Source: an uncultured Gemmatimonadales bacterium (GTDB lineage: Bacteria > Gemmatimonadota > Gemmatimonadetes > Gemmatimonadales > GWC2-71-9). Taken from it: a stretch of DNA of 64,000 nt. A program made the translations under genes and the position numbers. Below are positions 31,599 to 63,641 of this stretch, piece by piece. The notes beneath the pieces are model-generated. The model was not told the origin of the DNA. It worked only from the letters and a program-made list of their open reading frames with translations, and did no database searches. The DNA lies in assembly GCA_963821385.1 (NCBI GenBank), contig CAWGDK010000005.1, positions 488,907 to 552,906 on the forward strand, given 5' to 3'. Each line of letters begins with the position of its first letter. Positions within the stretch are counted from its first letter, which is position 1.

Positions 31599-31617
31599 GG
31601 GTTAGTCGCCCTAACCC
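31599..31617. terminator. short hairpin between convergent genes (possible bidirectional terminator)
   Basis: The hairpin is gggttag-tcgcc-ctaaccc, preceded by aaaaaaataaa. It overlaps the stop of the ADH gene. Confidence 0.3.
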
Positions 31618-32652
31618 AGGACTGCGACCGTCACGCCGACCCCGGGGAACGCATCCATCGCGGCGAGCTCAGCACCGACCTGCGAGAGGTCAATCGTTTT
31701 TCCCAACAGTTTTTCAGGATGGAGCCGTCCCTTGGTGATCAACTCCAGCATCCCAACGTATTCCCTCGCCTGCAGCCCGTGCGTCCCCCGGATTTCTAGC
31801 TCCCGCGCGATCACCTGACTCATCGGCACGGGCGGCTCGCTCTCACGGCCGAGGAGCAGCCCGACCTGGATGTGCCGGCCCCGCTTCCTGAGTGAGAGGA
31901 TCGAATTGCGGCAGGTGGCGGGGCTGCCGAGGGCATCGATCGAGACGTGGGCGCCGCCTCCCGTCAGCTCCCGGATCGCGCCCGGCACATCCGCTGTCGC
32001 CTTCGCATCGATCACGATTTCGGCGCCACAGGCGCGGGCCAGCGCGAGTTTGTCCGCGGCGATGTCGACGCCGATCACGCGCGCATCGAGCGCGCGCGCG
32101 ATCATGATGGCCGAGAGGCCCACGCCGCCGCAGCCGTGCACGGCCACCCATTCGCCGGGCTGCGTGCGGCCCTGCCCCACCACGGCGCGGTACGCCGTCG
32201 CGAAGCGGCACCCCAACAGCGCGGCGGTCGTGAAGGTCATGGCATCGGGGAGGCGCACCAGGTTCACGTCGGCGTACGGGAGGGCGACGAACTCCGCGAA
32301 GCGTGCCCCAGCCGGTGAAGCCCGGCTGGTAGTAGCGATCGCAGATCTGCTCGTCGCCCGCGCAGCAGCGCTCGCACGTGCCACATCCCATCGAGAACGG
32401 GACGGTGATCCGGTCGCCCTGTTTCCATTTGCGTACGTCTTTGCCCGTCTCGATCACGGTGCCGGCGAATTCGTGTCCCGGGACGTGCGGGACTTTCACG
32501 TCGGCATCGTGGCCTTTCCATCCGTGCCAGTCGGATCGGCACAGGCCCGAGGCTCCCACTTTGACGACGACGCCATCGGGCGGCGGCGTGGGATCAGGGA
32601 CGTCGACCAGACGCAGCGGACCTTCGAAGGCGTCGTAGCGAACGGCTTTCAT
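31611..32652 (-). pseudogene. zinc-dependent alcohol dehydrogenase (MDR family), one frame disruption near 32300
   Basis: ORF 31843..32652 ([36 protein letters not shown]) joins ORF 31611..32384 (FAEFVALPY..., [15 protein letters not shown]). Confidence 0.85.
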
Positions 32653-33284
32653 TTGCCTTGCTCGCGGTGTTCATGGACGGCGCGCCAGCAATACCAGGCG
32701 GCCACCGTCCGGTACGGCCGAAACCGTTCGCCCAGGGCCTCCAGCCGCTTGGGAGTCGGGATCTTGCGCAGACCGTAGGCGAGCGAATAGCCCAGCCGCA
32801 CACCGTAATCGCCCACCGGCCACACGTCCAAGCGGCGCAACTGAAAGATCAGAAACATCTCCGCCGTCCAGCGGCCGATGCCCCGCACCAGGGAAAGGCG
32901 CGTGATGATGTCCTCGTCCGAGCGCCGGCCGATGCCCCACAGTGGGACCGTCCCATCCGTCACCTTGGCGGCCAGATCGCGGAGCGAGGCCACCTTGCTG
33001 CGCGACAGCCCCACGGTGCGGAGCCGCCGCGGGTGCGTGGCCAGGACCGCTTCCGGAACCGGCTTCCCGTCGAACAGCGCGCAAAAACGCCCGTGGATCG
33101 CGGCCGCCGCGGCACCGGCGAGCTGCTGGTAATGGATGCTCTCCGCCAGGGCGAAAAAGTGGCTGCGGCCCGTTTGCGGCAGATGAAAGGGACCGGTCCG
33201 CTTCATGAGACCGGCCATTACGCGATCACGGCGGGCGATGGCCGCAGCCGCCGTCGAGAATGTGGTCTTCCGGTCTCGCGCCAT
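32649..33284 (-). CDS. HhH-GPD DNA glycosylase (DNA-3-methyladenine glycosylase II / AlkA-like)
   Basis: ORF 32649..33284 (211 aa). Motifs: GLSRSKVASLRDLA, LSLVRGIGRWTAEMFLIF, DVWPVGDYGVR. The start overlaps the ADH gene's end by 4 nt. Confidence 0.8.
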   Translation of the reverse strand: MARDRKTTFSTAAAAIARRDRVMAGLMKRTGPFHLPQTGRSHFFALAESIHYQQLAGAAAAAIHGRFCALFDGKPVPEAVLATHPRRLRTVGLSRSKVASLRDLAAKVTDGTVPLWGIGRRSDEDIITRLSLVRGIGRWTAEMFLIFQLRRLDVWPVGDYGVRLGYSLAYGLRKIPTPKRLEALGERFRPYRTVAAWYCWRAVHEHREQGK

Positions 33285-37521: not shown

Positions 37522-40158
37522 CTATCGATTGGCCTCGTCCACGGCCTGCTTCATCCGGTCCACCCAGTGCGGCGCGACGCGGAGGTAGGCGGCTGGCTTG
37601 TCGATGGCACCCCGCAGGTAGATGACACCACCGCCGGGCGCGAGCGCGAACGAGGGTCCGTTGGTGTCTCGAAACTGCGGCGCGTCGGCCCACCGGCCCC
37701 GATTGCGGAGCGGCGGATTCGCCGTGGGATCGACGGTCACCCGCTCGAGCCGGGTCCGAGGTCCGTCCGTGATCGGCACACCCAACTCGCGCGCCGAGAG
37801 CCACTGAATGTCCTCCAGATTGCCGGCCGCCGCCTGGAACCGGCGCCCGTCGCGCGGGAGAGGCTCGATCCAGGCCTCCGTATAGGCGGCGTTGGTGTAC
37901 GCGATCCAGCGCCCGTCGGCGGAAGGAAAGGCGAACCCGGTGTTCGAAAACAGCGAGTCGACGGTGACCGGCCGGCGGTCGAGTCGCAGCACGTCTGCGG
38001 CGTTCGGCTCCCAGCGGATCCCGAAGACCCGGTCGTCAGGCATCCAGCGCAACGCCTCGAAGTGCGGGAGGTACAGCAGGAACTCCGGAGGGCCGGAGCG
38101 GTCCGGTGAGCCCACGAGGATCGAATCGTTGGCGCCGAACAGCAGCCGGTCGCCCGCCGGGCTCCATATCGCATGGGTGATGACCGGCCGCCGGATCCAG
38201 GTCTGGTATCGACCGGACGCCAGGTCGTAGATCCTGAGCTCCATCCCTTCGAGCCCCTCGACCACCGCAGCGAGGCGACGGCCGTCGGGGCTGTACTCGA
38301 AGGTGAGGAAGGCCTCTCTGCCGAGGTGGCAGCGTGTCGATTCCCGCCTCGCTGAGGTGAACCAGGTGCCCGACCGACCGGTTGTCCCCCTGGGCGTACA
38401 CCAGGGTACCGGACGGCGGCGATGGCATAACTCGCCGTCCCCGGTGAAATTGGCGAGGCCGAGTCCACTCGCCATCCGCACGGCCCGACCCACCCGACCG
38501 GTCTCGAGGTCCACCGGCGCCGCGAGCAGATCACCGCCGATGGAGACGTAGGTCAGATAGCGCCCGTCGACGACCCGGAACGACGAACCGAACACCCGAT
38601 TGCTGTCCTCCGCACGCCAGAACCGCTGCTCGAACGCGGTGTCCCCGACCGCGATCCGGTAGCCCCATTTGGCCCCTCCCCCGCCACAGAGCAGGCCGTC
38701 TCCTCCCGGAGTCAGCGCCTGGCCCTCGCAGTATCCGGATCGGGACCGACGAGACCGGTCCCGCGCTCGGGATCGATCCAGCGGGCCACTGGCCGCCGCT
38801 GTCGATGGCGAGGATCCGGCCTCCGGAGGGCCAGAGCAGCCTCCGCAGGACTCGACGCCGCGACCGATCGTGGTCGCGGTGCCGCCTTCGACGGGGATGA
38901 CCTCGACGGTCCACCCGCCGTCCGTCAGGCGGAAGAACGCGATGCCGGTTGCCGTCGGGCGAGATCGACCGGCTGGGATCCGTCATCGGTGCCGGGGATC
39001 CGCCGCACGGTGGCATCGAGCAGTGAGCGATACCAGAGCTCGCTCCGGCCCTGCCGCACCGTCTCGTACACGACGAAGTCGCCGCCGGGCGAGACGGCGA
39101 ACCCGACGTCCTGGGCGACCGTCATCATGCCGGCCGAGTCGGGGAGGCCGACGTCGTACTCCACGGGAACACCCGCGCGCTCGGACCGGGCGAGCATCGA
39201 CGCCAGCAGGGCGCCGACGGCGATCCCCGCCGCGCCCGTGGCGGCGATCCGGAGATCACGCCACCAGGGGCGCCTGGAGCCCTGGGCCGCCGTTGTTCCG
39301 GTTGAGGTCGCCGCGACAAACGCCGGATTCGCGAGCGCGTCGGCGAACGCCTTCGCGCGCGTCGAACCGGTCGGCCGGGAGCTTCTCCAGCGCCTTCGCC
39401 AGCGCCGCCGCCACGTTCGGCGGCACGCTCTTCCGCAGGCTCGTCACCGGCGCCGCCGGCTCGGCGATGATCTTCATGATGATCTGCTGCGCCGAGCCAC
39501 CCGTGTGCGGCGGCTGCCCGGCCAGCATCTCGTACAGCACGCTCGCCAGCGAGTAGATGTCGCTGCGCGCCGTGATCTCCTTGTCCGCCGTCGCCTGCTC
39601 CGGGACATGTAGTGCGGCGTGCCCAGACAGAGCCCGGTCTCGGTCATGCGTCCGCCAGCCGCGGCGGACACGGCGAGCGCGATGCCGAAGTCCATCACCA
39701 TCGGCCGGCCATCGTGCAGCAGGATGTTCTCCGGCTTGATGTCGCGGTGGATCACGCCGTGGCGATGGGCGTAGTCGAGCGCGTCGGCGACCTCGGTGGT
39801 GATCCGTACCGCTTCGTCGATGCGCGAACTGGGTCTCGCGAGTGAGCTTCTCGCGGATCGTCTCGCCCTCGATGTAGGGCATGACGTAGTAGAGGAACCC
39901 GCCGGCCTCGCCGGAGTCGAACAGCGGCAGGATGTGCGGATGGCTGAGCGCCGCGGTGGTCTTGATCTCCTGGACGAACCGCTCGGCGCCGAGCACGGCG
40001 GCGAGCTCGGGCTTCAAGACCTTGATGGCGACCTTGCGGTCGTGCTTCAGGTCCTGGGCGAGGTAGACGGTGGCCATGCCGCCCCGGCCGAGCTCGCGCT
40101 CGAGGCGGTAGCGGTCGGACAACGCGGCGGCTAGACGCTCCATTCCATCGATCATCAT
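37522..40158 (-). pseudogene. Hanks-type Ser/Thr kinase fused (via a TM segment) to a TolB/PD40-like beta-propeller; at least 8 frame disruptions
   Basis: The kinase part is in ORF 39256..40158 (LGRGGMATVYLAQD, VAIKVL) and ORF 39474..39755 ([24 protein letters not shown]). The TM segment is IAATGAAGIAVGALLAS (my own translation). Propeller pieces are in ORFs 38925..39197, 38531..39016 and 37522..38595 (SPDGNR, YSPDGRRLA, WSPAGDRLLF, FPSADGRWIAY). Confidence 0.8.
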
Positions 40159-40160
40159 GA

Positions 40161-40511
40161 CTAGAACCCCCTGAGCGCGTCAGCCTCCGTGGCGAACACG
40201 GCGAGAATGGTCGAGAACCCGGAAATGTCGAACACCTCCCGGACCGTCTCGTTCAAGCCAAAGAGGCGCAGCGCCCCTCCCCCCGCCCCCGCCCGTCCCC
40301 CCAGCCGCTTGACCGTGCCGAGCAACACCCGCAACCCGGCACTGCTGATGTAGTCGAGCGCCGTCAGGTCCACCACGACCTTCCGCGCGCCACCCGAGAG
40401 AATCGCGTCGAGCGCCTGCTGCGCCTGGGGCGAGGTGTTGCTGTCGAGACTGCCGACAACGGCGACGAGCGTAACGTCATGGTGCGCGCGCGTGGTGATC
40501 TCCATGGCCAT
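40161..40511 (-). CDS. STAS-domain anti-sigma-factor antagonist (SpoIIAA/RsbV-like)
   Basis: ORF 40161..40511 (116 aa). Motifs: VVDLTALDYISSAGLRVLLGTVKR ... LRLFGLNETVREVFDISGF. Confidence 0.85.
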   Translation of the reverse strand: MAMEITTRAHHDVTLVAVVGSLDSNTSPQAQQALDAILSGGARKVVVDLTALDYISSAGLRVLLGTVKRLGGRAGAGGGALRLFGLNETVREVFDISGFSTILAVFATEADALRGF

Positions 40512-41021
40512 CTACTCCTTCAGGCGCTTGACCAGCACGACGACGTTGTGACCGCCGCGGCGGTGATAGTGGACCTCGTCCATCAGCTGCCGCACCAGGT
40601 GAATCCCCAGACCACCGATCGGCCGCTCCTCGACGGAGCCCGCGGTGTCGGGGACCGCCGTGTCGAGGGGATTGAACGGCTGGCCGTCGTCCGTCAGGGT
40701 GACCGTCAGCCGATCCGGCAGTAGCTCGACGGCGATCGTCACCGCGCCGTCTTCGCCCTGCCGCCCCGCAAATCCGTGCACGATCGTGTTCTGCAGCAGC
40801 TCGTCGAGGGCGACGTTCAGGCTGCGCCGGACCGCGGCCGGCATGGCGTGCGCCTCCGCGAACGCGGTGAACGCCGCGTTGACCCGGGCGATTTCGCCCG
40901 GGTCGCTCGCCATCGTCCATCGGACGCCCAGCCGCGTCGGCCCGGCATTGCCGAGGGGGGAGCCGCGGTGCAGGTTCTCTTCCAACCTTTGACCCCTCTG
41001 AGTTGTACTTGAAAGAAACAC
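40512..41021 (-). CDS. anti-sigma regulatory factor / Ser-protein kinase (RsbW/SpoIIAB-like, GHKL ATPase); start uncertain (41021 GTG, 40985 TTG or 40917 ATG)
   Basis: ORF 40512..41021. Motifs: LDELLQNTIVHGF (N-box), LTDDGQPFNP (G1-like), GGLGIHLVRQLMDEV (G2-like). The stop abuts the STAS start. Confidence 0.8.
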   Translation of the reverse strand: MFLSSTTQRGQRLEENLHRGSPLGNAGPTRLGVRWTMASDPGEIARVNAAFTAFAEAHAMPAAVRRSLNVALDELLQNTIVHGFAGRQGEDGAVTIAVELLPDRLTVTLTDDGQPFNPLDTAVPDTAGSVEERPIGGLGIHLVRQLMDEVHYHRRGGHNVVVLVKRLKE

Positions 41022-41569
41022 CTCCGGCGACGGACGAACAGGACCGGGACCTGGTCCGGCAGTTCCTGGACGGTCACCGGGACGCGGGCGAGAGCCTCGT
41101 CGATCGGTACCAGAAACGGCTGTACAACCTCGCGCTCCGGATGACGCACGACGTGCAGGACGCCGAGGACGTCACGCAGACGGTGTTTCTCAATGCGTTT
41201 CTGAAACTCCGGACCTACGACCCGAGGTACAAATTCTTCAGCTGGATCTACCGCATGACGGTGAACGAGTCGCTCAACCTGCTCAAGCGACGCAAGCCGG
41301 CGGTGACGCTGGAGGATGGACCGGAAATCCCGGCCGCGGCCGCCTCTTCCGATCGCTCGACGGAGGCCGAGGACCGTGTGGGGAAGGCGCTGATGGGCCT
41401 GGAGCCGAACGATCGGGCCGTGGTGGTGCTCAAGCACTTTCTGTTTTTCTCCTACGAGGAGATCGCTGGCGTGCTGGAGATTCCGGTGAAGACCGTCAAG
41501 TCGCGCCTCTTCACGGCGCGGGAGCGGCTGCGGCTCGTGCTCACTGAACAGGTGCGGGGCCCATGCTGA
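41003..41569 (+). CDS. ECF-type sigma-70 family RNA polymerase sigma factor (start codon uncertain, no ATG; TTG at 41003/41009)
   Basis: ORF 41003..41569. Region 2 reads LVDRYQKRLYNLALRMTHDVQDAEDVTQTVFLNAF...FFSWIYRMTVNESLN. Region 4 reads VVVLKHFLFFSYEEIAGVLEIPVKTVKSRLFTARERL. Confidence 0.85.
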   Translation: MYLKETPPATDEQDRDLVRQFLDGHRDAGESLVDRYQKRLYNLALRMTHDVQDAEDVTQTVFLNAFLKLRTYDPRYKFFSWIYRMTVNESLNLLKRRKPAVTLEDGPEIPAAAASSDRSTEAEDRVGKALMGLEPNDRAVVVLKHFLFFSYEEIAGVLEIPVKTVKSRLFTARERLRLVLTEQVRGPC

Positions 41570-42765
41570 ACACGGAACAGATCGAGCTCATCCAGCAGGA
41601 GATCGACGGCGCCAACACGCCGGAACAGCGAGCCGCGTTCCGGTCGCTGGTGGAGCGGAATCCGGAGGCCCGGGCACTGGCGGACGAGTTGCGCTCCGTG
41701 GTACTGGCCTTCGATCGTACGGGGACGCGCGAACCGCCTCCTCGTCTGAAACACGCGATCCTTGCGACACTGCCTCCACCGGGGCACGCGCGAGCGACGT
41801 GGTGGGGCATACTGAGTGATCCCGTGCAGACGATTCAGGATGTTTGGCAGCGCAGCATACTTCCAGGAGGCCACATGACGAGGAAAGCGATCATCATCGG
41901 AGGCTCAGCAGCAGCGGCGGCGGTCGTGATCTTCGTCGCCGGCTTACTGACCGGTTTCCCACCGGTCTTCAACAAGGCGGGCACGATCGGCGGGATCGGC
42001 GGCGTCGAGCAGGCGTCGCGCTATCGGGGGCGCGCCATGACCGAAGCCGACGTGACGCTCCAGAATCCCGAGATCCAGGTGCTGTTTCAGAACGATCAGA
42101 TCCTGCGCCTGGTGCGGAGCGATGTGTTCCGGGAAGTGATGCAGAATGCGGCGTTCCGGAACTTGCAGGCCAACGCGGCCTATCGCGAGCTCATGGCCAA
42201 CGCCGGCTACCAGCAGATCCAGGCCAGCGCCGCCTATCAGCAGATCCAGGCCAACCCGGCCTATCGCGAGCTCATGGCCAGCGCCGGCTACCAGCAGATC
42301 CACGCCAGCGCGGAGTACCAGCAGCTCCAGGCCAACGCCGTGTTCCGCGACCTGCAGGCGCAGGGAGCGTTCGGGCACGTGCAGTCCGCGGACGTCGCGC
42401 AGCGGCTCCAGGCCAACGCGGCGTACCGGGAGATCCAGGCCAACGCCGCGTATCTGCGGCTCCAGGCCAACCCGGCGTTCCGCGAGCTCCAGGCCAACGC
42501 CGTGTTCCAACAGCTGGCGGCGAACCCGGCGTACCAGCAGCTCCAGGCCAACGCCGCCTACCAGCAGCTCCAGGCCAACACGGCGTTCCGCGGGGTCCAG
42601 GCGAACGCGGTGTTTATGCGGCTCCAGGCCAGCGACGCGTTCCGCACGGTGCAAGCCAGCGGCGCGTTCTACCAGCTCCAGGCGGCCGAAGCGTTCCGCG
42701 CCCTGTCCCTGAACGCGGCGCTGTCCCAGACGTTCATGCGTGAGGCGATGCGCGACGCGAACTGA
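41563..42765 (+). CDS. single-pass anti-sigma-factor-like protein whose extracytoplasmic domain is 25 tandem nonapeptide repeats
   Basis: ORF 41563..42765 (400 aa). It overlaps the sigma stop by 7 nt. The N-terminal ~60 aa are helical and anti-sigma-like. The TM segment is AIIIGGSAAAAAVVIFVAGLL. The repeats follow the pattern QANAAYxxL. Confidence 0.65.
   Translation: MLNTEQIELIQQEIDGANTPEQRAAFRSLVERNPEARALADELRSVVLAFDRTGTREPPPRLKHAILATLPPPGHARATWWGILSDPVQTIQDVWQRSILPGGHMTRKAIIIGGSAAAAAVVIFVAGLLTGFPPVFNKAGTIGGIGGVEQASRYRGRAMTEADVTLQNPEIQVLFQNDQILRLVRSDVFREVMQNAAFRNLQANAAYRELMANAGYQQIQASAAYQQIQANPAYRELMASAGYQQIHASAEYQQLQANAVFRDLQAQGAFGHVQSADVAQRLQANAAYREIQANAAYLRLQANPAFRELQANAVFQQLAANPAYQQLQANAAYQQLQANTAFRGVQANAVFMRLQASDAFRTVQASGAFYQLQAAEAFRALSLNAALSQTFMREAMRDAN
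42058..42732 (+). repeat. 27-bp (9-codon) tandem coding repeat, ~25 units, with an embedded 81-bp higher-order duplication (~42179-42340)
   Basis: The units read LQNPEIQVL FQNDQILRL VRSDVFREV MQNAAFRNL QANAAYREL MANAGYQQI QASAAYQQI QANPAYREL ... QAAEAFRAL SLNAALSQT. The region is stop-free in several frames on both strands (ORFs 41844..42743, 42146..42712, 41944..42654). Confidence 0.85.
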
Positions 42766-42870
42766 CGCCCTCTCGTAGCGATCGTAGACCCGTGCGGTGA
42801 TCCTGGCTCGCTCTAACGGGAGCCGGGATCACCGCATAGCTTTGCTCCGCACCACCCTTCCCCTCGGACA

Positions 42871-45825
42871 ATGCCGCGACTGCGATACCTGGCCTTCCTC
42901 GTGTCCCTGGGGATGAGCGTGCCCGCCGCTCTCGCGGCGCAGTTTCAGACGCTCCAAACCGGCGACATGCGCCTGGTGTTGACCTCTCCGCTGCAGTCCT
43001 ATCTGGTGCCCCAGGTGGTCGGCAGCTTCGAGAACGCGCTGCAGTTTCACCGCCGCCTGTTCGACTACTCGCCGCGGGGCAAGATCGACCTGCTGCTGCA
43101 CGACCTGTGGCACTACGGCAACGCGGGCGCGAGCCCGCTGCCGCAGAACCACGTCACCGTCGGGATCGAGCCGTACGGCCACGACTACGAATCCGCGCCG
43201 GCCCAGGAACGGATGACCTCCTCGCTCAACCACGAGCTGGCCCACATCGTGACGACCGACAAGGCCACGGCGTCCGACCGGTTCTTCCGGTCGCTGTTCT
43301 TCGGCAAGGTCACGCCCACCGCGGACGCCCCGCTGTCGATGCTGTACGGCTACCTGACCGTGCCGCGCTGGTATGCGCCGCGCTGGTACCTGGAGGGGAT
43401 CGCCGTCTATCTCGAGACGTGGATGAACGGCGGGCGTGGGACGCGCGATCGGCCCCTACGACGAGATGGTGTTTCGCACCCTCGTCCGTGACAGCGGCCG
43501 CGTCTACGACGTCGTCGGGCTCGAATCCGAAGGGACGACGATCGACTTCCAGGTCGGGAGCAACTCCTATCTCTACGGGACGCGGTTCGTCAGCTATCTG
43601 GCGCTGCGCTACGGCGACGACAGCCTGCTGGCGTGGTTCAACCGCAGCGCGGGGAGCCGGCGCTACTTCTCATCGCAGTTTCGCCACGTGTTCGGCCGCT
43701 CGCTCGAGGACGAATGGTCGCGCTGGATCGCGTGGGAGCGTGCGTGGCAGGACACCAATCTCGCGAGCGATTCGGCGGCACCCGACCACCGCCTCCCGCC
43801 CGCTCTCGGATCGGACGCTGGGTGCCGTCTCCCGGGCGTACTACGACTCGGCGAGCCACAGCCTGGTCCTGGCCGTTCGCTATCCGGGACAGGTCGGCCA
43901 TCTGGTCACGCATCGACCTCGCATCCGGCAGGCTCAAGAACCTGCGGGAGGTGCACGGGAGCGTCCGGACCTGTCGGTCACCTCGCTGGCGTTCGATCCG
44001 GCGTCCCGGACGCTGTTCTATACGACCAACAACGCCAATTGGCGCCACCTCGTCTCGCTGAACCTGGCGACCGGCCACTCCGCGACGCTCATTCGCGACG
44101 CGCGGATCGGCGATCTCGCGTTCAACGCGCGGGACAGCTCGCTGTGGGGCGTCCGCCATGACAACGGGTTCTCGACGCTGGTCCGCATTCCGCCCCCGTA
44201 CCACGAGTGGCACCAGGTCCGCACCCTGCCCTACGGACGGGACCTGTTCGACCTCGACATCGCGCCGGACGGATCGACCCTCATCGGTTCGATGTCGGAT
44301 CTCAGCGGCAGCGAGCGGCTGGTCAGGATGGACCTCGCGGCGCTTCCGGCGGACTCCGCCACGCTCGAAGACCTGTTCGACTTCGGGAATTGGTCGCCGT
44401 CGAACTTCGTGTTCTCGCCGGACGGGCGGTTCCTCTACGGCTCCTCCTACTACTCGGGCGTATCCAACATCTTCCGCTACGACTTCACCACGAGCGAGAT
44501 GGAGCCCCTGAGCAACGCGGAGACGGGCTTCTTCAAGCCGGTCCCCCTGGCTGGGCGGCCGGACTCCCTCGTCGTCTTCCGCTATTCGGCCCGAGGATTC
44601 GTGCCCTCGCTGATCGCGAACCAGGTGGTGGACTCGGTCAGCGCGATTCGCTTCCTGGGCAACGAGATTGCCGCGAGCCGGCCCGAGGTGCAGTCGTGGA
44701 TGGTGCCGCCCATCGTCGCCGACTCCACCACGCCCTCGAGCGGCGCCTATCGCCCGCTGCGGACAGATCAAGCTGGACAACGCGTACCCGATCGTGGAGG
44801 GATACCAGGATGCGGACGGCGGCTCCACGGTGGCGGGCGGGCTGCGCCTGAACTTCTCCGATCGCGTCGGGACGACGGCGCTCGACCTGAGCGCGTCCTA
44901 CTCGGGCGGGGCCCTGGCGAAGTCGGAGCGTCTCCACCTGCGCGCGAATTTCCACTACTGGAACTGGCGCGTCGCCGCGGCCCTCAATCCCGCCGACTTC
45001 TACGATCTCGTCGGGCCCACGAAGACGAGTCGCAAAGGCTACTCGCTGACGCTCGAGCGTCAGGGCATGCTCCTGTTCGACGAGCCGAGGCGGCTGACGT
45101 ACTCGCTCCAGGTGGCGGGCTACGGCGACCTGGCGACCCTGCCCGAGTTCCAGGGCGTGCTGGCTCCATTCGACAAGCTGCTGTCGTTCTCCGGCGACCT
45201 CGCCTACACCTCGCTGCGACGCTCACTCGGCGCCGTGGACGACGAGCTGGGGACGACGTGGGGCGTCGGCCTGCGCGGCAACGCCGTGAGCGGGACCGTG
45301 TTTCCCCGCGTGAGCCTCGAGGCGGCGAAAGGGTTCTTGCTCCCACTGGACCACTCGTCGCTGTGGTTCAGGGCCTCAGGCGGCGCGGCGCTGTCCGGCA
45401 ACCGGACCAACCCGTTCGCCAACTTCTTTTTCGGCGGGTTCGGCAACAACTGGGTGGACCACCGGGACATCCAGCAATTCCGGAACGTCGCGAGCTTCCC
45501 GGGTCTCGACATCAACAGCGTCGCGGGCGCCGACTACGCCCGGGCCCAGGTGGAGTGGGTATCGCCGCCGCTGCGGTTTCGCCGCGCCGGGATCCCCAGC
45601 TGCTACCTGCGCTGGGCCAACGTGTCGCTGTTCACGACGGGGCTCATGACCAACGTCCGGGACGCGTCGCTGCGACGCACGCTGCTGAGCGCGGGTGCGC
45701 AGCTCGACATCCGCTTGATCACGCTCTCCCATCTCGAGTCCACGCTGTCGACGGGGTTCGCCGTGGCCGGGGAACGGGGTGGCCCGCCTCATTCCACGTT
45801 CATGTTCTCGTTCAAGATCATGTGA
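42871..45825 (+). pseudogene. secreted multidomain protein: N-terminal HExxH metallopeptidase-like domain, PD40/TolB-like propeller, and a C-terminal predicted outer-membrane beta-barrel; about 5 frame disruptions
   Basis: ORFs 42871..43491 (signal peptide, SSLNHELAHIV), 43436..44161, 43107..46736 (middle part: LAFDPASRTLFYTT, DIAPDGSTLIG, FSPDGRFLYGSSY) and 44668..45825 (amphipathic beta-strand pattern, FGGFGNNW, ending TFMFSFKIM). Confidence 0.7.
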
Positions 45826-46833
45826 CGGCCGTCGTCGCGATTGCCGTCAGTGTCCTGCCGGTCTTCCTGTTCCTCGGCGCACTGGTCCTGATCGACAGCT
45901 ACAAACTCGTCGCGTTCCGGGCGATCCTGCTGTCGCTCACGGCCGGCCTGGTCGCCGGGCTCGCGAGCTACGCGGTGAACGTCAGCCTCCGGCCCGCGCT
46001 CGCCCTGGACCTGGCACCCTATTCCCGCTACGTCGCGCCCGTCGTGGAAGAGTCGTTCAAGGCCGCTTTCGTCGTCTTCCTGCTGCAGCGCAACCGGGTG
46101 GGGTTCGTCGTGGACGCCGCCATCCACGGATTCGCCATCGGCACCGGGTTCGCGGTGCTCGAGAATCTCTACTACGTCGAGGCGGCGGCGGGTGCCACGC
46201 TGTGGACCTGGATCGTGCGCGGGTTCGGCACCGCCGTCATGCACGGGGGCGCCACGGCCATCCTGGCGATGATCGCCAAGACGCTGCAGACCCGGGCCGG
46301 GACCTTCCGGCTCTCCCTCGTCCTGCCGGGTCTTGGGCTGGCCGTGGTGCTGCACTCGCTGTACAACCACGTCCTGGTGCAGCCGATCCTGGCGACGGCG
46401 CTCCTCGTCCTGGTGTTTCCCTGGCTCAGCATCGTGGTGTTCCAGCCGAGCGAACGGGAAACGAGCGCCTGGCTGGGGGCGGGATTCGACACCGACCAGG
46501 AGCTGCTGCAAGGCCGTGCACGCGGGGCGGATCTCGGCGACCCCGATGGGCAGCTATCTCAAGACCCTGCGCAGCCGCTTCGCCGCGGAGGTGATCGTGG
46601 ACATGATGTGCCTGCTGCGCCTGCGTGCCGAGCTCGCGATCCGCGCCAAGGGGGTCCTGATGTTGCGCGAGGCGGGGTTCGAGGCCGCGCCCGATCCAGC
46701 GGTGAAGGACAAGTTCCGAGAGCTGCGCTACCTTGAGAAAAGCATCGGGCGGACGGGGATGGTCGCCATCCACCCGTTCCTGCACACCAGCACGCGGGAC
46801 CTCTGGCAGCTCAACCTGCTCAACGAAACGTGA
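45822..46833 (+). pseudogene. prsW: PrsW-family intramembrane metalloprotease, one frame disruption near 46510
   Basis: The GTG at 45822 overlaps the upstream stop by 4 nt. Sequence comes from ORF 43107..46736 (VAPVVEESFKA, AIHGFAIGTGFAVLENL, TAVMHGGATA, HSLYNH) and then ORF 46333..46833 (C-terminal cytoplasmic tail). Confidence 0.8.
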
Positions 46834-46840
46834 TGCGCTA

Positions 46841-47185
46841 ATGGAAGCCTCGGTGGAACAGCGCGGTGGGGTATGCACCGTGCATATCGCCGGCAGCGTG
46901 GACGGACTCACCGCCGACAGTCTCCAGCAGGTCCTGGCGCGCGAGCTGGACGCGGGACACGCCAAGCTGATCGCCGACTTCGGTGCGGTGGACTACACCA
47001 GCAGTGCCGGTCTGCGCGTGCTGCTGGGCACGGTGAAGCGCGCCCGATCGGGCGGCGGGGACCTGCGGCTCGCGGGCCCCAACCCCGACGTCCGGAAGGT
47101 GCTCGAGCTGAGCGGGTTCACCGGCATCCTGAAAGTGTTCGAGACGGTGGACGACGCCGTCGCCAGTTTCGGCGGCCCGGGATGA
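46841..47185 (+). CDS. STAS-domain anti-sigma-factor antagonist (second copy)
   Basis: Within ORF 46733..47185, from the ATG at 46841. Motifs: IADFGAVDYTSSAGLRVLLGTVKRARSGGGDLRLAGPNPDVRKVLELSGF. Confidence 0.85.
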   Translation: MEASVEQRGGVCTVHIAGSVDGLTADSLQQVLARELDAGHAKLIADFGAVDYTSSAGLRVLLGTVKRARSGGGDLRLAGPNPDVRKVLELSGFTGILKVFETVDDAVASFGGPG

Positions 47186-48373
47186 GCGGCGCGCCGGCCC
47201 GGGTGCTGGTCGTGGAGGCGGCGGACGCGCCGGACCGCCTCAGCGGGCACGTGCAGCGCGAAGGGTACGGCGTGGACACGGCTGCCCAGACTGATGAGGC
47301 GCTCGCGAAGCTCCGGGCGGAGCGGTTCGACCTCGTGTTGCTGGACGCGGGCCGGGACGGCACGGGCTTGCTCGAGGCGCTGCGGAGCGACGCCGAGCTC
47401 GCGCCGGTTCCGGTGGTCGTCGTGTCGGCGGTGGAGGACGTCGACGTCGTCGCGCGCTGCCTCGAGCTGGGCGCCGACGACTATCTCCCGCGCCCCTTCC
47501 ATCCGGCGATGCTGCGGACGCGCCTGGGCGCCGCCTGGATCGCCGACGCGCTGCGGGCCGCCGAGAGTCTCACGCGCGAGATGGCCGTCGCCCGGAACAT
47601 CCAGCGGGATTTTCTTCCCGAGACACTCCCGATGGCGATGGGCGTGCAGCTCGATGCCGCGCTGCATCCGGCGCGCGAGGTGTCGGGCGACTTTTACGAC
47701 GCCTTCGTGCTGGCGCCCGGGAGTACCATCGTCCTGGTCATGGGAGACGTGTGCGACAAGGGTTTTGGCGCGGCGCTGTTCATGGCGCTGTTTCGCAGCC
47801 TCATCCGCGCGTCGGCCGACCCCGTCGGGGGCGGCGCGATCCAGATGATCGGCGGCCGTCGCACGCTCGTGCGCCAGTCGCTGGAATCCGCCTCGCCGGC
47901 CGACCTCTTGACGCGCGTCGCGGGATTCACCAACGACTACATCGCCAGACTGCACGGGCGTACCAACATGTTCGCGACGGTCTTCCTGGCGGCCCTCACG
48001 CCGCAGACCGGGCAGTTCGACTACCTGAACGCCGGTCACGAGCCGGCCATCGTGATGGGACGGGACGGCGCCACGCTGGAGCTGATGCCCACGGGCCCCG
48101 CGCTCGGACTCTTCCCCGAGGCGACGTTCCAGACGGGCGAGGGAACGCTCGGGCCCGGCGAGGCCCTGGTCGCGTTCACCGACGGACTGGTGGAGGCGCG
48201 GAACCCGGCCGGTGAGGCGTTCGGCACCGAGCGTCTTCAGGTCGCGCTGCGGGCGCACAACAGCTCGGCCGCCAATCTCGTCCGGGGCGTCATCGAGGCG
48301 CTCGCAGGGCTTCACCGGGCAGGCCGAGCCCCACGACGATGTGACGCTGCTCGTCGCGCGTTCGGTCGGGTGA
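47182..48373 (+). pseudogene. response-regulator receiver domain fused to a PP2C (SpoIIE-type) Ser phosphatase; frame disruption near 48300 restores the canonical C-terminus
   Basis: Within ORF 46873..48570, from the ATG at 47182 (ATGA overlap with the STAS stop). Receiver motifs: RVLVVEAAD..FDLVLLD..VVVVSA. PP2C motifs: SGDFYD, VMGDVCDKGFGAALFMA, DYLNAGHEP, FTDGLVEA. The alternate frame gives GQAEPHDDVTLLVARSVG* ending at 48373. Confidence 0.85.
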
Positions 48374-57957: not shown

Positions 57958-58274
57958 TGGTTCCTCCTGGGTCGGAATCCGGCCACGTCGGACGACTCAA
58001 ATGCCTGGGAAGTGCGGTGCGGTGGGTGAAAACGACGTGAAAACTGTCTGAAAAATCGAAGCCGGAGGCCATGAAAGAGCCCCACAGTCGAAGTCACTGG
58101 GAGGCTTGATCTTCACTCAGTCGGGACGGCGACCGGTAGGGAGTACTTTAGTGCGCGATTGACGGGGCGCGAGCACAGCGAGCGCCGGCCGCAAGCACGC
58201 CGACACGACACGGCCACGCTCTCGTCGTGCCCAAGAAGCAGATGGGCCGCTCGCGCGCCTGAACGGAGCAGAGG

Positions 58275-58652
58275 CTAGGCTGCGACGGCGGCGATCACCG
58301 GACCGGCGGGAATCAATTCCTTCCGGACGGGGTCGATTTTGAGGTTCAACCCCTCCAGCGAGTGCGCACCCAGCAGCGTCATATCCCCGGTTTCGGCGAA
58401 GACCACCAGGTCGGGGGCCTCCGAGCCGGCGGCTCTCACGAGGGCGTACCCAATGTCGCGGTCGATGCGCCGCCCGTCAGCGACGATGAACCCTTGGCGC
58501 CGTTGCGGTCGGACGCCGAGCGCCTCGAGGATGGGACGGGAAATCCAGGTGTACTCGCTGCCCGTATCTACGAGGACGTCTGGCAGCGCCCGCCACGGAG
58601 ACTCTTGGGCCTCCCAATTCCTCACTTCAATGGTCGTGCGAAAGAGCCCCAT
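58275..58652 (-). CDS. retropepsin-like (clan AA) aspartic protease, ~125 aa
   Basis: Within ORF 58275..58922, from the ATG at 58652: MGLFRTTIEV...LPDVLVDTGSEYTWISRPILEALG (DTG active site) ...GDMTLLGAHSLEGLNLKIDP. Confidence 0.75.
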   Translation of the reverse strand: MGLFRTTIEVRNWEAQESPWRALPDVLVDTGSEYTWISRPILEALGVRPQRRQGFIVADGRRIDRDIGYALVRAAGSEAPDLVVFAETGDMTLLGAHSLEGLNLKIDPVRKELIPAGPVIAAVAA

Positions 58653-59430
58653 GTCGTTCACAATGGCCTCCTCGGGTGCTGACTTCGACACCATTTCCTT
58701 GCGATGAGAGACAAATCTACGCCACCGGTGGCTGGGCGTGCTGGCGGCATCGTTGGAGGCGACCAAGGCCCCCGGAGGCGAATGAGAAGAGGCCCCCGCG
58801 ATCGCGGAGGCCTCGAGCCGGCCGGACAGGGCCGGCGTGCCCGTCAGGGCACGAGCGGAGCGAAGTCGCGCAGCGACCGAGCTCAACTGCGACTCGTTAG
58901 GGGTGTGCCCTACGGCGGACAAGCCGGCCGCGAGGCACTCTATCTGCTGCCCTGCGGCGATGTCGCGGCCGTCGTCTGGAATCAGGGCTGGGGGTCGTCA
59001 AGACGATCCTCACGCGAGACCACGCGATTGCGAACATGCAGTCCATGGGTGCGGTTCGCCGCAATCGAAGCGACCTGCGCGAACTGGCCGAGCAGCACTT
59101 CAACGCTGGCGTCAGCAGGAGGAGGAACGCGCTGCTGCGGGGGCGGGGATCGATCCCGGAGGGAAGGCAGGCGAGATCTACGGGGCCGCCTACGGCGCGT
59201 TGGTGAAGGCTCAGTGCTCGAAAATCGAGGCCTCGGAAACAGCAGGACGCCGAAGAACTCCGCTTTCATTCGCCACTCGTGGTCAGCGCGCGCGCGCCTA
59301 GTTATCCGCCATCCTCCCCTATTGTTCCGCAAAACGCCTCTCAATGGCGCAAAAACGCCCTAAGCGCGTCCGGGATACTGCACCTTAGGACACAACCGCA
59401 CGAGGTTGTCGCGGAACAACGCCCCTCGGA

Positions 59431-61000
59431 ATGGCAACCATGGCAACGTCTCTGACCATTTTCAAGATCAGGAGTGGAATTACGAACCATGATGAGATTG
59501 TTGTCAATCGTGACCGCCTCAGAGTGTTTCCAGTCTCGATAAACCGCAACCTGTTAGGCATTCTCTACGTCCAGAGGAACCCTCTCAAGCTACCTAGCTG
59601 GCTAGGGTTCTTCGAAGACATCGTGGATTTCGAAGGTATGGAACTCAGAACAACAGGTGCCAAAGCGGTGCTTGTCATCCAACGAGACGCGAACACTGTG
59701 TTCGCTCTGACGTTTGGATACGGTCGATGGATGATTCAGGACTCTGCGATTGAATCACGCTTTGGCTTGCATGTCACCCTGAACGCGATCGATCCTACCG
59801 GCATTAGATCGATTGACCACAAGAGACTCGAAGCGATTTCCCGGCAGACCCGAGAACAACTGAGTCAGGCCTCCGGACTTCAGTACTTTGGGATGGATGT
59901 GGAGCGGGATCTCTTGAGAGCAGTTACCGGAAAACCACGAGACGCGACGTTGGCCGATCGGCTCGCCGGGGGCGACCAACTCACGGTGATCGGCGACATC
60001 TCAATCCGTGGGCTCAATGCAGCCCTCAGTCGATTTCGCAGCATTGTCGAGGGAAACAGCGTATAGGAGAGATTTTGGTTTCGTCGACTTCATAGCAGAA
60101 GTAACCGATGTGGCGCTTCAAACCCAGCTTGATGCGACGTTGGTCGCGCGGATGCGTAGGCAGGCCCCGCTAGGGGTCTGGCTAGCACCCCCGAGAGATC
60201 TTGAGTCGGGACGAGGTTCGTGGTTTCAGGTACAAGGGCAACGCGAACGCTCCGATCCATGATGATCTGGACTTGGAAGAGTACATCAACGACGCGGGCC
60301 CTCGGCGACAAACAACAATTGAACGCCTTCGCCACGATCGTGTGCGTTTGGTCAGCGCAGTGGATGGAGCGGACCGACAGGAATGGAGTGTCTACCGATG
60401 TTTGGTGGGGGAGCTAACGGTCCGCGACGAAACGTACGTTCTGAACGAGGGGAAATGGTATCGAGTTGATCGCGATTTCCTCGCGGACGTAAACGCGGCG
60501 GTTGGGGCCTTGCCAGCAACCAATGCTCCCCTTCCCCCCTTCCGCCAGCGTTCAGAACGTAGCTACAACCGTCGAACCCAAGAACAATCGGGTGGCCGCT
60601 TCGCCCTACTGGATCGACAAATGATCGTTACTGTAGGGCGCGGTTTGTCGAAAGCTGTGACCTCTTTAGCCTCGAACGTCAGCTCATTCATGTGAAGCGC
60701 TATACCGGTTCGGGGACACTCAGCCATCTCTTCAACCAAGGTGTGGTTTCGGGTGAGCTCCTTGCATATGATCGAACCTTCAGACAGGGCTTCAATGACC
60801 TGTTGCCTGCAACCCATCGAATGGCCCAGCCTGCAGCGGCGATCGTTACTGGAGAGTACGAGGTGGCTTATGCGATCATAGCTCGTCGAGGCACACAGTT
60901 TGTACTGCCATTCTTTAGCAGAGTGACCCTTCGCTACGCCGCGCGCGTGCTTCGCCAGATTGGCTATGCCGTAACATTGACGGCAATTCCTACTCCGTAG
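59431..61000 (+). pseudogene. TIGR04141/DUF6119-like sporadically distributed protein (~520 aa) with a C-terminal PD-(D/E)xK-like motif; 3 frame disruptions (~60055, ~60200, ~60640)
   Basis: ORFs 59431..60066, 60008..60262, 60201..60695 and 60692..61000. My own translation across the last junction gives FVESCDLFSLERQLIHVKRYTGSGTLSHLFNQGVVSGELL. The family assignment is from memory of TIGR04141 sequence style. Local GC is about 50%. Confidence 0.6.
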
Positions 61001-61018
61001 ACTCGATGTCGAAGGATT

Positions 61019-62179
61019 CTACCCTTTGACGCGCTCGTCTAGCCGGCTCCGAAGCCAATTCTCCAACCGTCCCCTCACAGCCAAAGACATCGTACCGGTT
61101 CTCTCGGGATCAGCGAAGGCCGGAAGTCGATCCATATTTCTTCTCACCTCGTACCATCCAGCTTCGATTCCGACCATCAACTCGGCGTGATCGGAGGGAT
61201 CAGCCGTCCCGTCGAAAATGTACTTGAAGGACAAGTTGTCGAACGTCTTGAGATCCTTCGGGTCTCTTTCCGCGCGGAAGAAGGCGGAGGGAATGAGATG
61301 ATCCGTATGGAAGTAGCCCTGATAGTGATCGGACGAGTAGCCTCTGAAAGGCGACGTTTCCTTAGCGGCGATGACTGCCCCGTCTTTGATCTCTGACGAG
61401 CCACGTGGCTGGGCAGTGGACGAGGCCGCGAGGCTTTCGACCGTCCGGGCCTGGGAAGGCGTTGCCGATTGTGCGCATCGCGATCTCCAGATGGCCCACC
61501 TTTTCCTTGTCGCCGAGCATGTCCAGTCCCGCACGCGCGTAGGCAAAGTGCCCTAGCGCGTTCGAGGTGGTCATCACCCCGCCGGGTGTCCTGTGATCGT
61601 GCCACCAGCGTCCGTCGGCTTGTGTGCAGAAGACGTTCGGCAACGTTGAGAATTTCAGGATCCTCGGTCCGCGGCGAAGAAAGACGTATTCTCGCTGAGG
61701 GACAATGGTGTCGTCAGGAATCGGCTCGACTTCCATGTAGAGCTCAAGCAGTCGTCGACACACTTCTTTGAGCCCGTCGCCGGCTCCTTGTCCACCAGGC
61801 TCTTTGAGACAACCAGGATAACGAAGGATGAACTCAGGCCTTCAAGGGCGTACCTCTTCCAGACCTGCCGGTGATCCTGAATCGTGTCTCGTAGGTCATC
61901 ATCGCCCCTGCGCATCCGGAGGATTTCGTCCTCCTCCAGAAGACAGACGAAGACAAACTTGTTCTTGGCCGCGACACGACCGAACACGCACGGCTGATTG
62001 GCTTCGAGCCATCGTGTATACACGGCTCTCTTCTTGTGTTTGTTGTACTTGGAGCTGAAGAGAATCGCATGGACACTCTCGATGTCTTCGGAAAACGGAT
62101 GCTTTTTCCGAAAGGCGTCGCGTGGGCCGCGGTATCGGAGATCGAGGATCATCTCAGCAACGTGTGTGCGCACGCTCAA
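61019..62179 (-). pseudogene. hypothetical ~386-aa protein, last gene of the nuclease-SAVED operon; 2 frame disruptions (~61760, ~61450)
   Basis: ORFs 61655..62179, 61362..61763 and 61019..61546. The start is 4 nt after the SAVED gene's stop. The only weak resemblance is NQPCVFGRVAAKNK, reminiscent of the FPCxFA motif of YqcI/YcgG-family proteins. Confidence 0.55.
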
Positions 62180-62183
62180 CCTC

Positions 62184-63641
62184 TCAACCGGTGTTTATAG
62201 TGACGGATTCTTGATACCCACCTTCCGTCGTTCGCTCGTATGTCGTAATCAACCCCAGGGCATTGAGTTGCTGACCGAGAAAGAGGGCAAACGACCAGGG
62301 TCCATAGAGAACTAGGTGGACCCGTGACGCTGAGTACCGCTCCTTGCTATCTCGAATCACAAGTTTGGCTGATCGCGCGAGCGCCACCAGGTCACCTGCA
62401 CTGCCGATACTGGTTGGACCCGTCCCACCTTCAGGCTCCGCATAGACCAGCGCGGTCGCGTGGAGGGAAGACTTCAGTTGTTCCATTTCACTCAGTCCAT
62501 GACCAGTTATCGAGAGACCGATCACGATGTCCTTACCCGGCCCACCGCTTTTCTCTCGCGATCACGAACACTTTTTGAGATCCAGGAGCATCGGAACGCC
62601 ACAGATGCGTCTCACCACCAGTCGGCTGCTCGGCTCGAAGTCGAAAGCCAGCTACTTCTGGAAGCGCAAACCCGACAGCGATCGCCGCACTGAGTGGCAG
62701 CTTACCGCGCACGTCGACGTACTTCCCGTTCGACAGAGATCCCAAGCGCTCGCGCGCAGATCGTCATCTTGGCAATAGGTCACCAGCCCATACTTCCGGT
62801 GACGCAACAGCCGGTCTCTGGGTCAAAGAAGTTGGTCCAATCCAGCTCGACCGTCGGTGCAACATCGTACCCCTGGCGGGTCCATCCATGTATCACGAGG
62901 CGAACCTCAGGTGCCTCCGATGGCTGCGCCCATAGCCCGCGGCGATCGATGATTCCAACCAACACTTCTCGCGTGATGACCTTCGCATCGCCGCCTCGCT
63001 GGATCCTCCCGCTAATCTCGTCGAGAGCAGCTGCGCGCGCGTTTTCACCCATGCGGAGATCTAGGCGTCTGCCATGCGATCGTCTACGCGCTCATACAGC
63101 CGCTCTAAAGGGTAGTATCCGAGCTCAAGTCGAAGGTCGCGACAGAAAGCATCGAGTTCTATCGGTGTTGCACCCAACACCTCGCGCCAACGGCGACGAG
63201 CAGCGTCTACCGAACGCGTCGTGAAAAACTCATCCGTTAGACGCCCTTCGAGATCGCTGATATAGGCTCCCAAGTCCGGACTGGGCGCCGGGGAATAGTT
63301 GCTGACAAGCAAACTTCAACTGGAGCAGCACCGCGCAATAACTTCCAGCTGTCAAAGAGTTTCTTAAGGAGCAGACTCGTTCCAGCACTGATGGTGACGA
63401 GGGATTCGAAGCTGTACTGATCACGGTAGTCAGTATGCCACTTGACTTGCACATAGCGGGCAGGAGCCTGGGAGTCCTTCCGCGGATGAAAAGTGATGTC
63501 GTCAGTGGAGCCCGCCTTCGGGTGTTCGAGCACAGCAGATTCGTACGAACTCCCAGGATCCAGCAGGCGCAGAAGTTCAAACCAACTGTATAGATGCTGA
63601 TAGTCGTCCCCGCCGAGACGAGAGGCACTCTGCTCAGCCAT
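62184..63641 (-). pseudogene. Cap4-like effector: N-terminal DUF4297-type PD-(D/E)xK dsDNA nuclease + C-terminal SAVED sensor domain; at least 4 frame disruptions
   Basis: ORF 63237..63641 (RLGGDDYQHLYSWFELLRLL; STDDITF...YVQVKWH, i.e. D...QxK). ORFs 63061..63312, 62780..63052 and 62533..62745 (YVDVRGKLPLSAAIAVGFALPEVAGFRLRAEQ). ORF 62184..62525 (RVHLVLYGPWSFALFLGQQLNALGLITTYE). The two CARF-like lobes are typical of SAVED. Confidence 0.7.

Follow-up and report, generated by a model that had tools for sequence, protein, structure and literature searches.

A SigW-like extracytoplasmic function sigma factor locus with an attached RsbW/STAS/PP2C partner switch in a Gemmatimonadales bacterium, a probable copy of a widely conserved envelope-signalling module

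A 64,000-nucleotide (nt) stretch from an uncultured Gemmatimonadales bacterium (contig CAWGDK010000005.1, assembly GCA_963821385.1; hereafter, at its full length, the window) carries a divergent cluster of nine signalling genes arranged around an extracytoplasmic function (ECF) sigma factor. Judged from sequence comparison, the locus is probably a copy of a widely conserved envelope-signalling module, in which an ECF system of the SigW/RsiW/PrsW type has an RsbW/STAS/PP2C partner switch attached to it. Domains were called with Pfam and families with NCBIfam (18950 models), while folds were searched with Foldseek and structures were predicted with AlphaFold2 (AF2). The following features were identified, with coordinates given in the window:

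37522-40158, minus strand: Hanks-type Ser/Thr kinase (Pkinase domain at 39256-40158, E = 2e-21)
40161-40511, minus strand: STAS1, an anti-sigma-factor antagonist (PF01740, E = 9e-19)
40512-40985, minus strand, in an open reading frame (ORF) extending to 41021: RsbW-like HATPase_c_2 serine kinase (PF13581, E = 9.6e-26)
40982-41007, plus strand: ECF-type promoter-like motif, CCAACCTTT-N13-TGTA, ending 1 nt short of the probable sigma start codon
41009-41569, plus strand, in an ORF from 41003: SigW-like ECF sigma factor (region 2, E = 7e-16; region 4, E = 7e-13)
41563-42765, plus strand: membrane anti-sigma factor of 400 amino acids (aa), with an RsiW-like domain, one transmembrane segment and periplasmic repeats
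42786-42838, plus strand: stem-loop of 18 bp between the anti-sigma and HExxH genes
42871-45825, plus strand: HExxH / TolB-like propeller / predicted barrel protein, 983 aa after frame correction
45822-46833, plus strand: PrsW-family intramembrane protease (PF13367, E = 4.5e-20)
46841-47185, plus strand: STAS2, a second antagonist paralogue (PF01740, E = 3.7e-23)
47182-48373, plus strand: receiver-PP2C phosphatase of the SpoIIE family (Response_reg, E = 1.6e-14; SpoIIE, E = 3e-36)

The sigma and anti-sigma genes share 7 nt, the HExxH and PrsW genes share 4 nt, and the STAS2/PP2C junction is an ATGA overlap. On the minus strand, the RsbW stop adjoins the STAS1 start and the STAS1 stop is separated from the kinase start by 2 nt. 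The nine domain calls, gene order, strands and junctions had been set out in an earlier note on this DNA, and all were found to be correct by Pfam and by inspection of the sequence. The start codon of the RsbW-like kinase is uncertain, and its N-terminal peptide NxHRGxPLxNAGP appeared, when the upstream DNA was inspected, to be conserved in relatives. Two candidate coordinates were rejected: (i) the minus-strand ORF at 40477-40920, considered as RsbW, is in the wrong frame and has no Pfam match; and (ii) a PrsW end at 46736 reflects an out-of-frame tail, with the corrected end at 46833.

Four of the nine genes (those of the HExxH protein, PrsW, PP2C and the Hanks kinase) were found not to be continuous ORFs in the raw sequence, a point that had gone unnoticed in the earlier note. 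Intact homologues from relatives align to the window in successive frames, and plots of G+C content at third codon positions (GC3) change frame within genes. The frame jumps were located as follows (related loci are cited by L number throughout):

HExxH gene: three, at ~43431, ~43770 and ~44761
PrsW gene: one, at ~46508
PP2C gene: one, at ~48303
Hanks kinase gene: at least two and probably six, at ~39821 and ~39606 (by comparison with the L004 kinases), with more between 38400 and 39260 (by three-frame translation)

The five plus-strand jumps are all +1, and four of them look, from a reading of the sequence, like an extra G beside other Gs. With one base deleted at each of these five sites, the ORFs measure 983, 336 and 396 aa and align over their full length with those of relatives, in which the HExxH protein is encoded in a single frame. 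Only with this correction does the PP2C gene run to 48373, and its C-terminus then reads PHDDVTLLVARSVG before the stop codon, as in relatives. At least nine frame disruptions in 11 kb, spread across four of nine genes, could be taken to mean that the cluster is decaying in the source genome, with real frameshift mutations and the affected genes as pseudogenes. We consider this highly improbable, as genes elsewhere in the window that are unrelated to the cluster are equally broken, among them an M13 peptidase (2697-4793), whose Pfam profile coordinates run on consecutively through four frames, and a zinc alcohol dehydrogenase (31611-32670), split across two. The uniform +1 sense and apparent extra Gs of the plus-strand events, a GC3 that is high in every shifted frame, and similar breaks in L007, the locus of a related long-read-style metagenome-assembled genome (MAG), also count against decay. 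Because unrelated window genes are broken likewise, the frame jumps are probably assembly indels and not decay specific to the cluster.

The conservation of the cluster was examined by a scan of one genome per species, which gathered 195 sigma factor relatives; 80 loci were retained from these, and the window proteins were mapped onto them by tblastn. Within the Gemmatimonadales, STAS and RsbW genes upstream of the sigma gene were each found in 11/11 loci, the HExxH gene in 10/10, the PrsW gene in 9/9 and a downstream PP2C gene in 7/7. The corresponding counts in other phyla were 60/66 for STAS, 54/66 for RsbW, 43/47 for the HExxH gene and 38/39 for PrsW, with an upstream PP2C gene in 34/63, a count made at low detection sensitivity. 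Carriers beyond the Gemmatimonadota included Ignavibacteria/Chlorobi, Bacteroidota/Rhodothermales, Calditrichota, KSB1, Zixibacteria, Acidobacteriota and Beta/Gammaproteobacteria. Thus, the arrangement is beyond chance, as it recurs in dozens of genomes. The earlier note had held that genes adjacent only in this genome would speak against its proposal; instead, the gene combination is conserved across phyla.

Outside the Gemmatimonadales, the usual order is colinear, namely (GAF-)PP2C, RsbW, STAS, ECF, anti-sigma, HExxH and PrsW, and in L023 and L046 the order is shuffled while the set is still together. The division of kinase and phosphatase between opposite operons, to which the earlier note had drawn attention, is real in the window and is a layout specific to the Gemmatimonadales. 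Of nine loci sampled from other phyla, eight carry a GAF-PP2C, and in three the phosphatase is fused to an RsbW domain, which ties phosphatase and kinase to one substrate. Such single GAF-PP2C-HATPase_c_2 proteins were seen in Beta/Gammaproteobacteria at L027 7906-9699, L062 7779-9614 and L068 7471-9627. In the Gemmatimonadales contig L117, a 276-aa gene call (614-1444) spans HATPase_c_2 and STAS, perhaps as an artefact of a frameshift. The HExxH gene is missing from five loci in which the partner switch, the ECF sigma factor and PrsW are present.

The sigma factor, whose nearest relatives are from Gemmatimonadales MAGs at 65-75% identity, was found to have SigW as its top two matches among the 18950 NCBIfam models (NF007223, 6e-33; TIGR02948, 1e-30), with AlgU (8e-24) and SigW (5e-22) as its best matches in the PDB. 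By these sequence matches, it is SigW-like and not a SigW equivalog. A profile of 30 orthologous anti-sigma N-termini matched RsiW (5wuq_C) at E = 1e-10 over 74 residues, covering the whole cytoplasmic domain, which identifies a class-I anti-sigma domain of the RsiW type; one transmembrane segment comes after it. The zinc motif HxxxCxxC was looked for in this domain and not found; the aligned positions read LaadpeAral, with no His or Cys conserved. PrsW scored 72.5 bits against PF13367 (cut-off 23.5) and 22 of the 225 bits set for the NCBIfam PrsW equivalog. Its residues E76, E77, K80, H141, H178 and N182, which include the EExxK and HxxxN motifs, are at least 95% conserved in 48 orthologues. 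PrsW has in addition a cytoplasmic C-terminal domain of ~115 aa (window 46509-46833), present in all orthologues of L001-L079 and marked by the motif WLGxGFDxD...CxLRLxxELAxRAKG...DLWQL; a profile of this domain had no match in the PDB. The pairing of sigma, anti-sigma and PrsW made in the earlier note is borne out by the NCBIfam and PDB matches, by which the triad is homologous to SigW/RsiW/PrsW. From this homology and the operon linkage (38/39 and 9/9 loci), PrsW is likely to make the site-1 cut in the anti-sigma ectodomain.

The anti-sigma ectodomain consists of tandem repeats: a 27-nt unit present in 19.7 copies (42151-42683) encodes ~20 periplasmic nonapeptides of the form QANAAYxxL. The 9-aa period is kept between phyla while the sequence varies (QANAAYxxL, ADKDFQRIM, AQxPQAFxAL; e.g., L067 11408-12283 and L068 11397-12827). 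Gemmatimonadales, Ignavibacteria and Betaproteobacteria encode the anti-sigma and repeat proteins as a single fused gene. Calditrichota, KSB1 and some Gammaproteobacteria have an anti-sigma factor of ~260 aa, composed of the anti-sigma domain, a transmembrane segment and a beta-rich ectodomain; the next gene encodes a separate protein with a transmembrane segment and repeats, and a further copy of the promoter-like motif described below lies in front of that gene. In Betaproteobacteria, a second full promoter-like motif was also seen within the fused ORF of the anti-sigma factor, its translation there being QLF...RVIG (L021, L027, L034, L044, L051, L056, L071, L076 and L079, at ~10780-10870). 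This internal motif could be a relic of the fusion, or an internal promoter for a protein that lacks the anti-sigma domain.

A CCAAC-N17-TGTA motif was found directly upstream of the sigma gene in 72/78 loci, at the same position across phyla and with the general form CCAAC(C/T)TTT-N12-15-(C/G/T)GTA. It is similar to TGAAAC-N16-CGTA, the sigmaW consensus. In the 64-kb window, the motif has a single match (40982-41007) against 0.02 expected. The sigma start codon lies 1-4 nt past TGTA in nearly all phyla (L001-L080), a spacing that suggests a leaderless or near-leaderless sigma mRNA and by which the start in the window is probably TTG 41009 and not 41003. The coding region of RsbW overlaps the motif on the opposite strand, with the TTG at 40985 overlapping the -35 element. 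Where the genes are colinear, the motif is preceded by the partner-switch genes, which are thus probably transcribed separately from the sigma operon, a placement that fits a pre-existing regulator rather than a member of the regulon. In the Gemmatimonadales, the PP2C gene lies downstream of the predicted promoter in the same gene string, as does STAS2 in the window.

The stem-loop that follows the anti-sigma gene (-48 kcal/mol, z = -5.4; loop CTAACG) is kept, with 16-18 bp, in L002, L004, L012, L082, L094, L112, L116 and L117, where base changes preserve the stem. Ignavibacteria/Chlorobi have at its position a canonical terminator of a G+C stem plus T-run. The stem-loop may act as an intra-operon attenuator or terminator. 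A second promoter of the sigma type was looked for before the HExxH gene and none was found, and the terminator or hairpin after the anti-sigma gene was counted in favour of HExxH-PrsW as pre-existing machinery.

The HExxH protein belongs to a large and poorly annotated family. It matched > 5180 sequence clusters, nearly all of them unnamed or labelled 'hypothetical protein' and nearly all without Pfam annotation, and the protein (P0001) had no match among the 18950 NCBIfam models. A look-up of cluster members yielded no cultured host. Residues H121, E122, H125 and E175 are invariant in 88 sequences. The AF2 model of an 86%-identical homologue (predicted local distance difference test score, pLDDT, 87.4; predicted template modelling score, pTM, 0.87) was composed of an alpha/beta N-terminal domain (1-300), a beta-propeller (310-585) and ~16 long strands (625-985). 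The top Foldseek match of the propeller was TolB (2w8b_B, 4e-10, probability 1.00). The N-terminal domain modelled from a single sequence gave a pLDDT of 43, and the family profile returned weak propeller matches only when compared with the PDB. Sub-threshold Pfam matches were seen to Omp85_2 in 5/9 members, to PD40 in 4/9 and to Peptidase_MA_2 in 2/9 (best 7e-4). Taken together, the protein is predicted to be secreted, with a gluzincin-like domain, a TolB-like propeller and a putative C-terminal barrel.

The components of a partner switch are all encoded at the locus, and kinase, STAS and PP2C all score above the cut-off of their respective Pfam families. STAS1 and STAS2 scored 83 and 82 bits, respectively, both above the TIGR00377 cut-off of 53. 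STAS1 has the motif DYISSAGL with the phosphorylatable Ser, and L(E/D)YISSAGL is invariant in STAS1, STAS2 and all orthologues. The RsbW-like kinase, in which the N, G1 and G2 boxes are visible, had RsbW and SpoIIAB as its best NCBIfam matches, both below cut-off, and the PP2C phosphatase retains its metal-binding motifs. Thus, around the sigma gene of the SigW/RsiW/PrsW-like triad there is also a complete RsbW/STAS/PP2C set, as the earlier note had said. The PP2C receiver (47182-47540) reads VVEAAD where DD is usual and DYLPRP where DYLxKP is usual, and in several relatives (L012, L082 and L112) the PP2C has no receiver; this domain may be an atypical or dispensable input.

The relationship of the partner switch to its neighbours was examined by distance correlation (mirror-tree) across 25 complete loci, a test that is weak and was read as a lead only, as the RsbW distances are near saturation. 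Distances correlated at 0.79 for the ECF sigma factor with the anti-sigma domain (0.35 when controlling for HExxH distances), at 0.86 for the sigma factor with the PrsW transmembrane domain (0.55) and at 0.61 for RsbW with STAS (0.54). STAS correlated with the PrsW C-terminal domain at 0.74 (0.37 when controlled in the same manner), and the partial correlation of STAS with the sigma factor was 0.19.

Several observations weigh against reading the locus as one joined module of the kind proposed: (i) the SigW scores of the sigma factor, 114 and 107 bits, are below the cut-offs of 209 and 243, and the PrsW match is likewise below its NCBIfam cut-off; (ii) for the HExxH protein, the assignment of a peptidase and a barrel is based on Pfam matches below threshold and on the AF2 model; (iii) L029 (10010-15625) has the ECF sigma factor, anti-sigma factor, repeat protein and HExxH gene without the partner switch and PrsW, such that parts of the cluster are separable; and (iv) the distance correlation of RsbW with the sigma factor was 0.29, falling to -0.04 when controlling for HExxH, with the RsbW distances near saturation. 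Very large ORFs (1119-1329 aa) border the L029 variant.

Direct co-evolution of RsbW with the sigma factor is thus unsupported by distance correlation, which faintly favours a link to PrsW. The partner switch might accordingly gate proteolysis and not the sigma factor, with RsbW or STAS binding the PrsW C-terminal domain or the anti-sigma domain and so licensing or blocking the site-1 cut. In keeping with this, PrsW always carries the conserved 115-aa cytoplasmic domain, which has no solved homologue; five loci keep the switch, the sigma factor and PrsW in the absence of the HExxH gene, while L029 lacks the switch and PrsW together; and the partial correlation of STAS with the PrsW C-terminal domain (0.37) compares with 0.19 for STAS and -0.04 for RsbW with the sigma factor. 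However, the co-loss pattern is that of one locus, phylogeny confounds the correlations, which are weak, and the position of the kinase and STAS genes just before the sigma gene mirrors the sigB and sigF operons. We know of no precedent for RsbW-type control of an intramembrane protease, and we regard gating of proteolysis as rather doubtful.

The low RsbW-ECF correlation could also mean that the partner switch has an unrelated target of its own, for example an enzyme or a different sigma factor, and is only a passenger beside the ECF operon. RsbW-type switches do often act on targets other than sigma factors, as for Bordetella BtrUWV (PMC7498569) and, as cited in PMC9239204, SiaABCD. Yet the adjacency has outlasted at least seven phyla and several rearrangements, and no other target gene is conserved alongside the switch, making an unrelated output improbable. 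A partner switch attached to the SigW/RsiW/PrsW-type system remains our preferred reading.

The earlier note had treated all nine genes as one unit; the seven-gene core of this unit was upheld, STAS2 proved to be only partly conserved, and the Hanks kinase was not syntenic. STAS2 is found in the closest relatives (L082 and L112) and is absent from L001-L012, and in L084, L087, L094, L095, L096 and L106 it occurs with a second RsbW in the order PrsW-RsbW2-STAS2-PP2C. By this distribution, STAS2 is restricted to a subclade and is a local add-on. The Hanks kinase, the most frame-damaged gene of the locus, consists of a kinase domain, one transmembrane segment and a putative PD40/TolB-like extracytoplasmic part; the latter matched PD40 at E = 0.011 and the C-terminal parts of the L004 kinases at 26-29% identity, as read from the frame-damaged gene. 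The full nine-gene set could nonetheless be a functional unit, in which the Hanks kinase would phosphorylate STAS1, in the manner of PknD and Rv0516c, as an integral third input. The kinase start 2 nt after the STAS1 stop suggests co-transcription, and propeller-type Ser/Thr kinases lie near the cluster in L004 (three copies), L067 and L085. Against this, a Hanks kinase was present within 4 kb in 1/7 Gemmatimonadales loci and 0/56 others, and it does not adjoin STAS1 in that one locus of the 63 with sufficient flanking DNA. A kinase next to STAS1 was also absent in L116 and L117, metagenomic contigs whose HExxH proteins are 85-86% identical, such that the adjacency is found in no relative. Moreover, such kinases recur nearby (three in L004; another in the window at 13575-15386), fitting chance adjacency. 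An integral nine-gene unit is therefore unlikely, and the Hanks kinase appears to be a lineage-specific add-on. The second Hanks kinase of the window, at 13575-15386, lacks the first ~40 profile positions and was counted among the window genes broken by frame jumps.

Elsewhere in the window, the G+C content of ~68% falls at positions 58000-64000 from ~0.68 to 0.57, and the ORFs of this segment lack the GC3 signature of the remaining window; the segment may be acquired DNA. Rfam and tRNA scans of the window, with 58000-64000 included, gave no match, and a scan of the window for sigma-70 promoters and terminators gave matches at chance level only.

The locus was compared with known systems, of which SigW/RsiW/PrsW is like it in the best family matches of the sigma factor, the RsiW-like anti-sigma domain, a PrsW with EExxK and HxxxN, and a promoter-like motif (AAC-N17-TGTA) close to the sigmaW consensus. 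In the Bacillus subtilis sigmaW/RsiW cascade, the PrsW cut is followed by further trimming, then by RasP and ClpXP (PMC4105308). Here, by contrast, (i) the hosts belong to diderm phyla; (ii) prsW lies inside the operon and encodes an extra cytoplasmic domain; (iii) the anti-sigma factor is without the zinc motif, and its ectodomain is built of 9-aa repeats; and (iv) an HExxH-propeller-barrel protein and a partner switch are attached, with scores below the equivalog cut-offs. The sigmaB (RsbU/V/W) and sigmaF (SpoIIE/AA/AB) switches share with the locus a HATPase_c_2 kinase, a STAS protein with the serine and a SpoIIE-family PP2C, as well as the placement of kinase and STAS genes directly upstream of the sigma gene. 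They differ in that the adjacent sigma factor here is of the ECF type, not group 3, with a class-I anti-sigma factor of its own, and in that the order here is kinase then STAS, whereas there it is STAS then kinase. B. cereus RsbY is a receiver-PP2C of the same architecture as the window phosphatase.

An outer-membrane or periplasmic component is coupled to an ECF/anti-sigma pair in FecA/FecR/FecI and sigmaE/RseA/DegS, with relay by anti-sigma proteolysis. Unlike in those systems, no TonB-dependent transducer or DegS-type PDZ protease is found here, and the candidate outer-membrane partner is a putative metalloprotease-propeller-barrel fusion of an unannotated family. The Mycobacterium tuberculosis kinase PknD is a beta-propeller Hanks kinase that phosphorylates the STAS protein Rv0516c. 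The window resembles this pair in having a Hanks kinase with a putatively propeller-like extracytoplasmic part beside a STAS gene, an adjacency that is limited to the window and conserved in no relative. The Bordetella btr locus also brings an ECF gene (BtrS) together with a PP2C/kinase/STAS set (BtrU/BtrW/BtrV), and it is without PrsW, a membrane RsiW-like anti-sigma factor and an HExxH protein (PMC7498569). There, BtrU/W/V act on secretion by a mechanism that is not known, and BtrS is antagonised by secreted BtrA (PMC7498569). The earlier note had cited this locus as established partner-switch control of an ECF sigma factor, which was an overstatement, as the Bordetella case does not demonstrate such control of BtrS (PMC7498569).

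A literature search for a combined ECF/PrsW/partner-switch cluster found no description, the supplementary group descriptions of the ECF reclassification lying outside the literature covered; with these aside, the statement in the earlier note that the combined arrangement had not been described agrees with the literature searched. The main text of the ECF reclassification paper makes no mention of PrsW, STAS or RsbW, and in ECF classification RsbW has served as a negative control for ECF interaction (PMC7406223). The component parts are of known kinds (SigW/RsiW/PrsW, RsbU/V/W and a PknD-like kinase), and it is their fixed combination that appears, from the literature searched, to be new.

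In the model that we propose, the periplasmic branch would begin with an envelope cue that, in the likely course of events, allows PrsW to cleave the anti-sigma factor at site 1, with the HExxH protein probably serving as a sensor or trimming protease. Intramembrane and then cytoplasmic proteolysis of the anti-sigma factor would follow, and the freed sigma factor would autoinduce its own operon. In the cytoplasmic branch, the PP2C phosphatase, which is receiver-linked here and GAF-linked in most phyla, would dephosphorylate STAS-P; the unphosphorylated STAS protein would capture the RsbW-like kinase and so free the kinase's other partner. That partner could tentatively be the sigma factor itself, in which case RsbW would act as a second anti-sigma factor, or, somewhat doubtfully, the proteolytic machinery, e.g., the cytoplasmic domain of PrsW or the anti-sigma domain. 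In this lineage, the presence of STAS2 and PP2C within the sigma-dependent operon would provide feedback, and the Hanks kinase appended to the RsbW-STAS1 operon may provide an extra input. More speculatively, and as a possibility that we hold with some reserve, the module may represent a class of ECF pathway with two inputs that is widespread in diderms and as yet undescribed. In such a pathway, a partner switch fed by GAF or receiver domains would directly gate the ECF sigma factor or, via its C-terminal domain, PrsW, while a new outer-membrane HExxH-TolB-barrel protease and the 9-aa-repeat ectodomain would deliver the envelope signal in parallel.

If true, with either wiring an ECF pathway would for the first time be shown to be under RsbW-type control. 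Switches of the RsbW type and ECF sigma factors have been treated as separate worlds, a division that is challenged by a module joining both in at least seven phyla and suggesting a common, unstudied way to merge envelope and cytoplasmic signals on one transcriptional output. The module would also place the SigW/RsiW/PrsW paradigm in diderm bacteria, give PrsW a candidate regulatory domain, and give the HExxH-propeller-barrel family (> 5000 clusters, mostly unnamed) a possible role in signalling. Furthermore, the strictly conserved promoter-like motif would offer a read-out of the pathway and a route to the members of its regulon.

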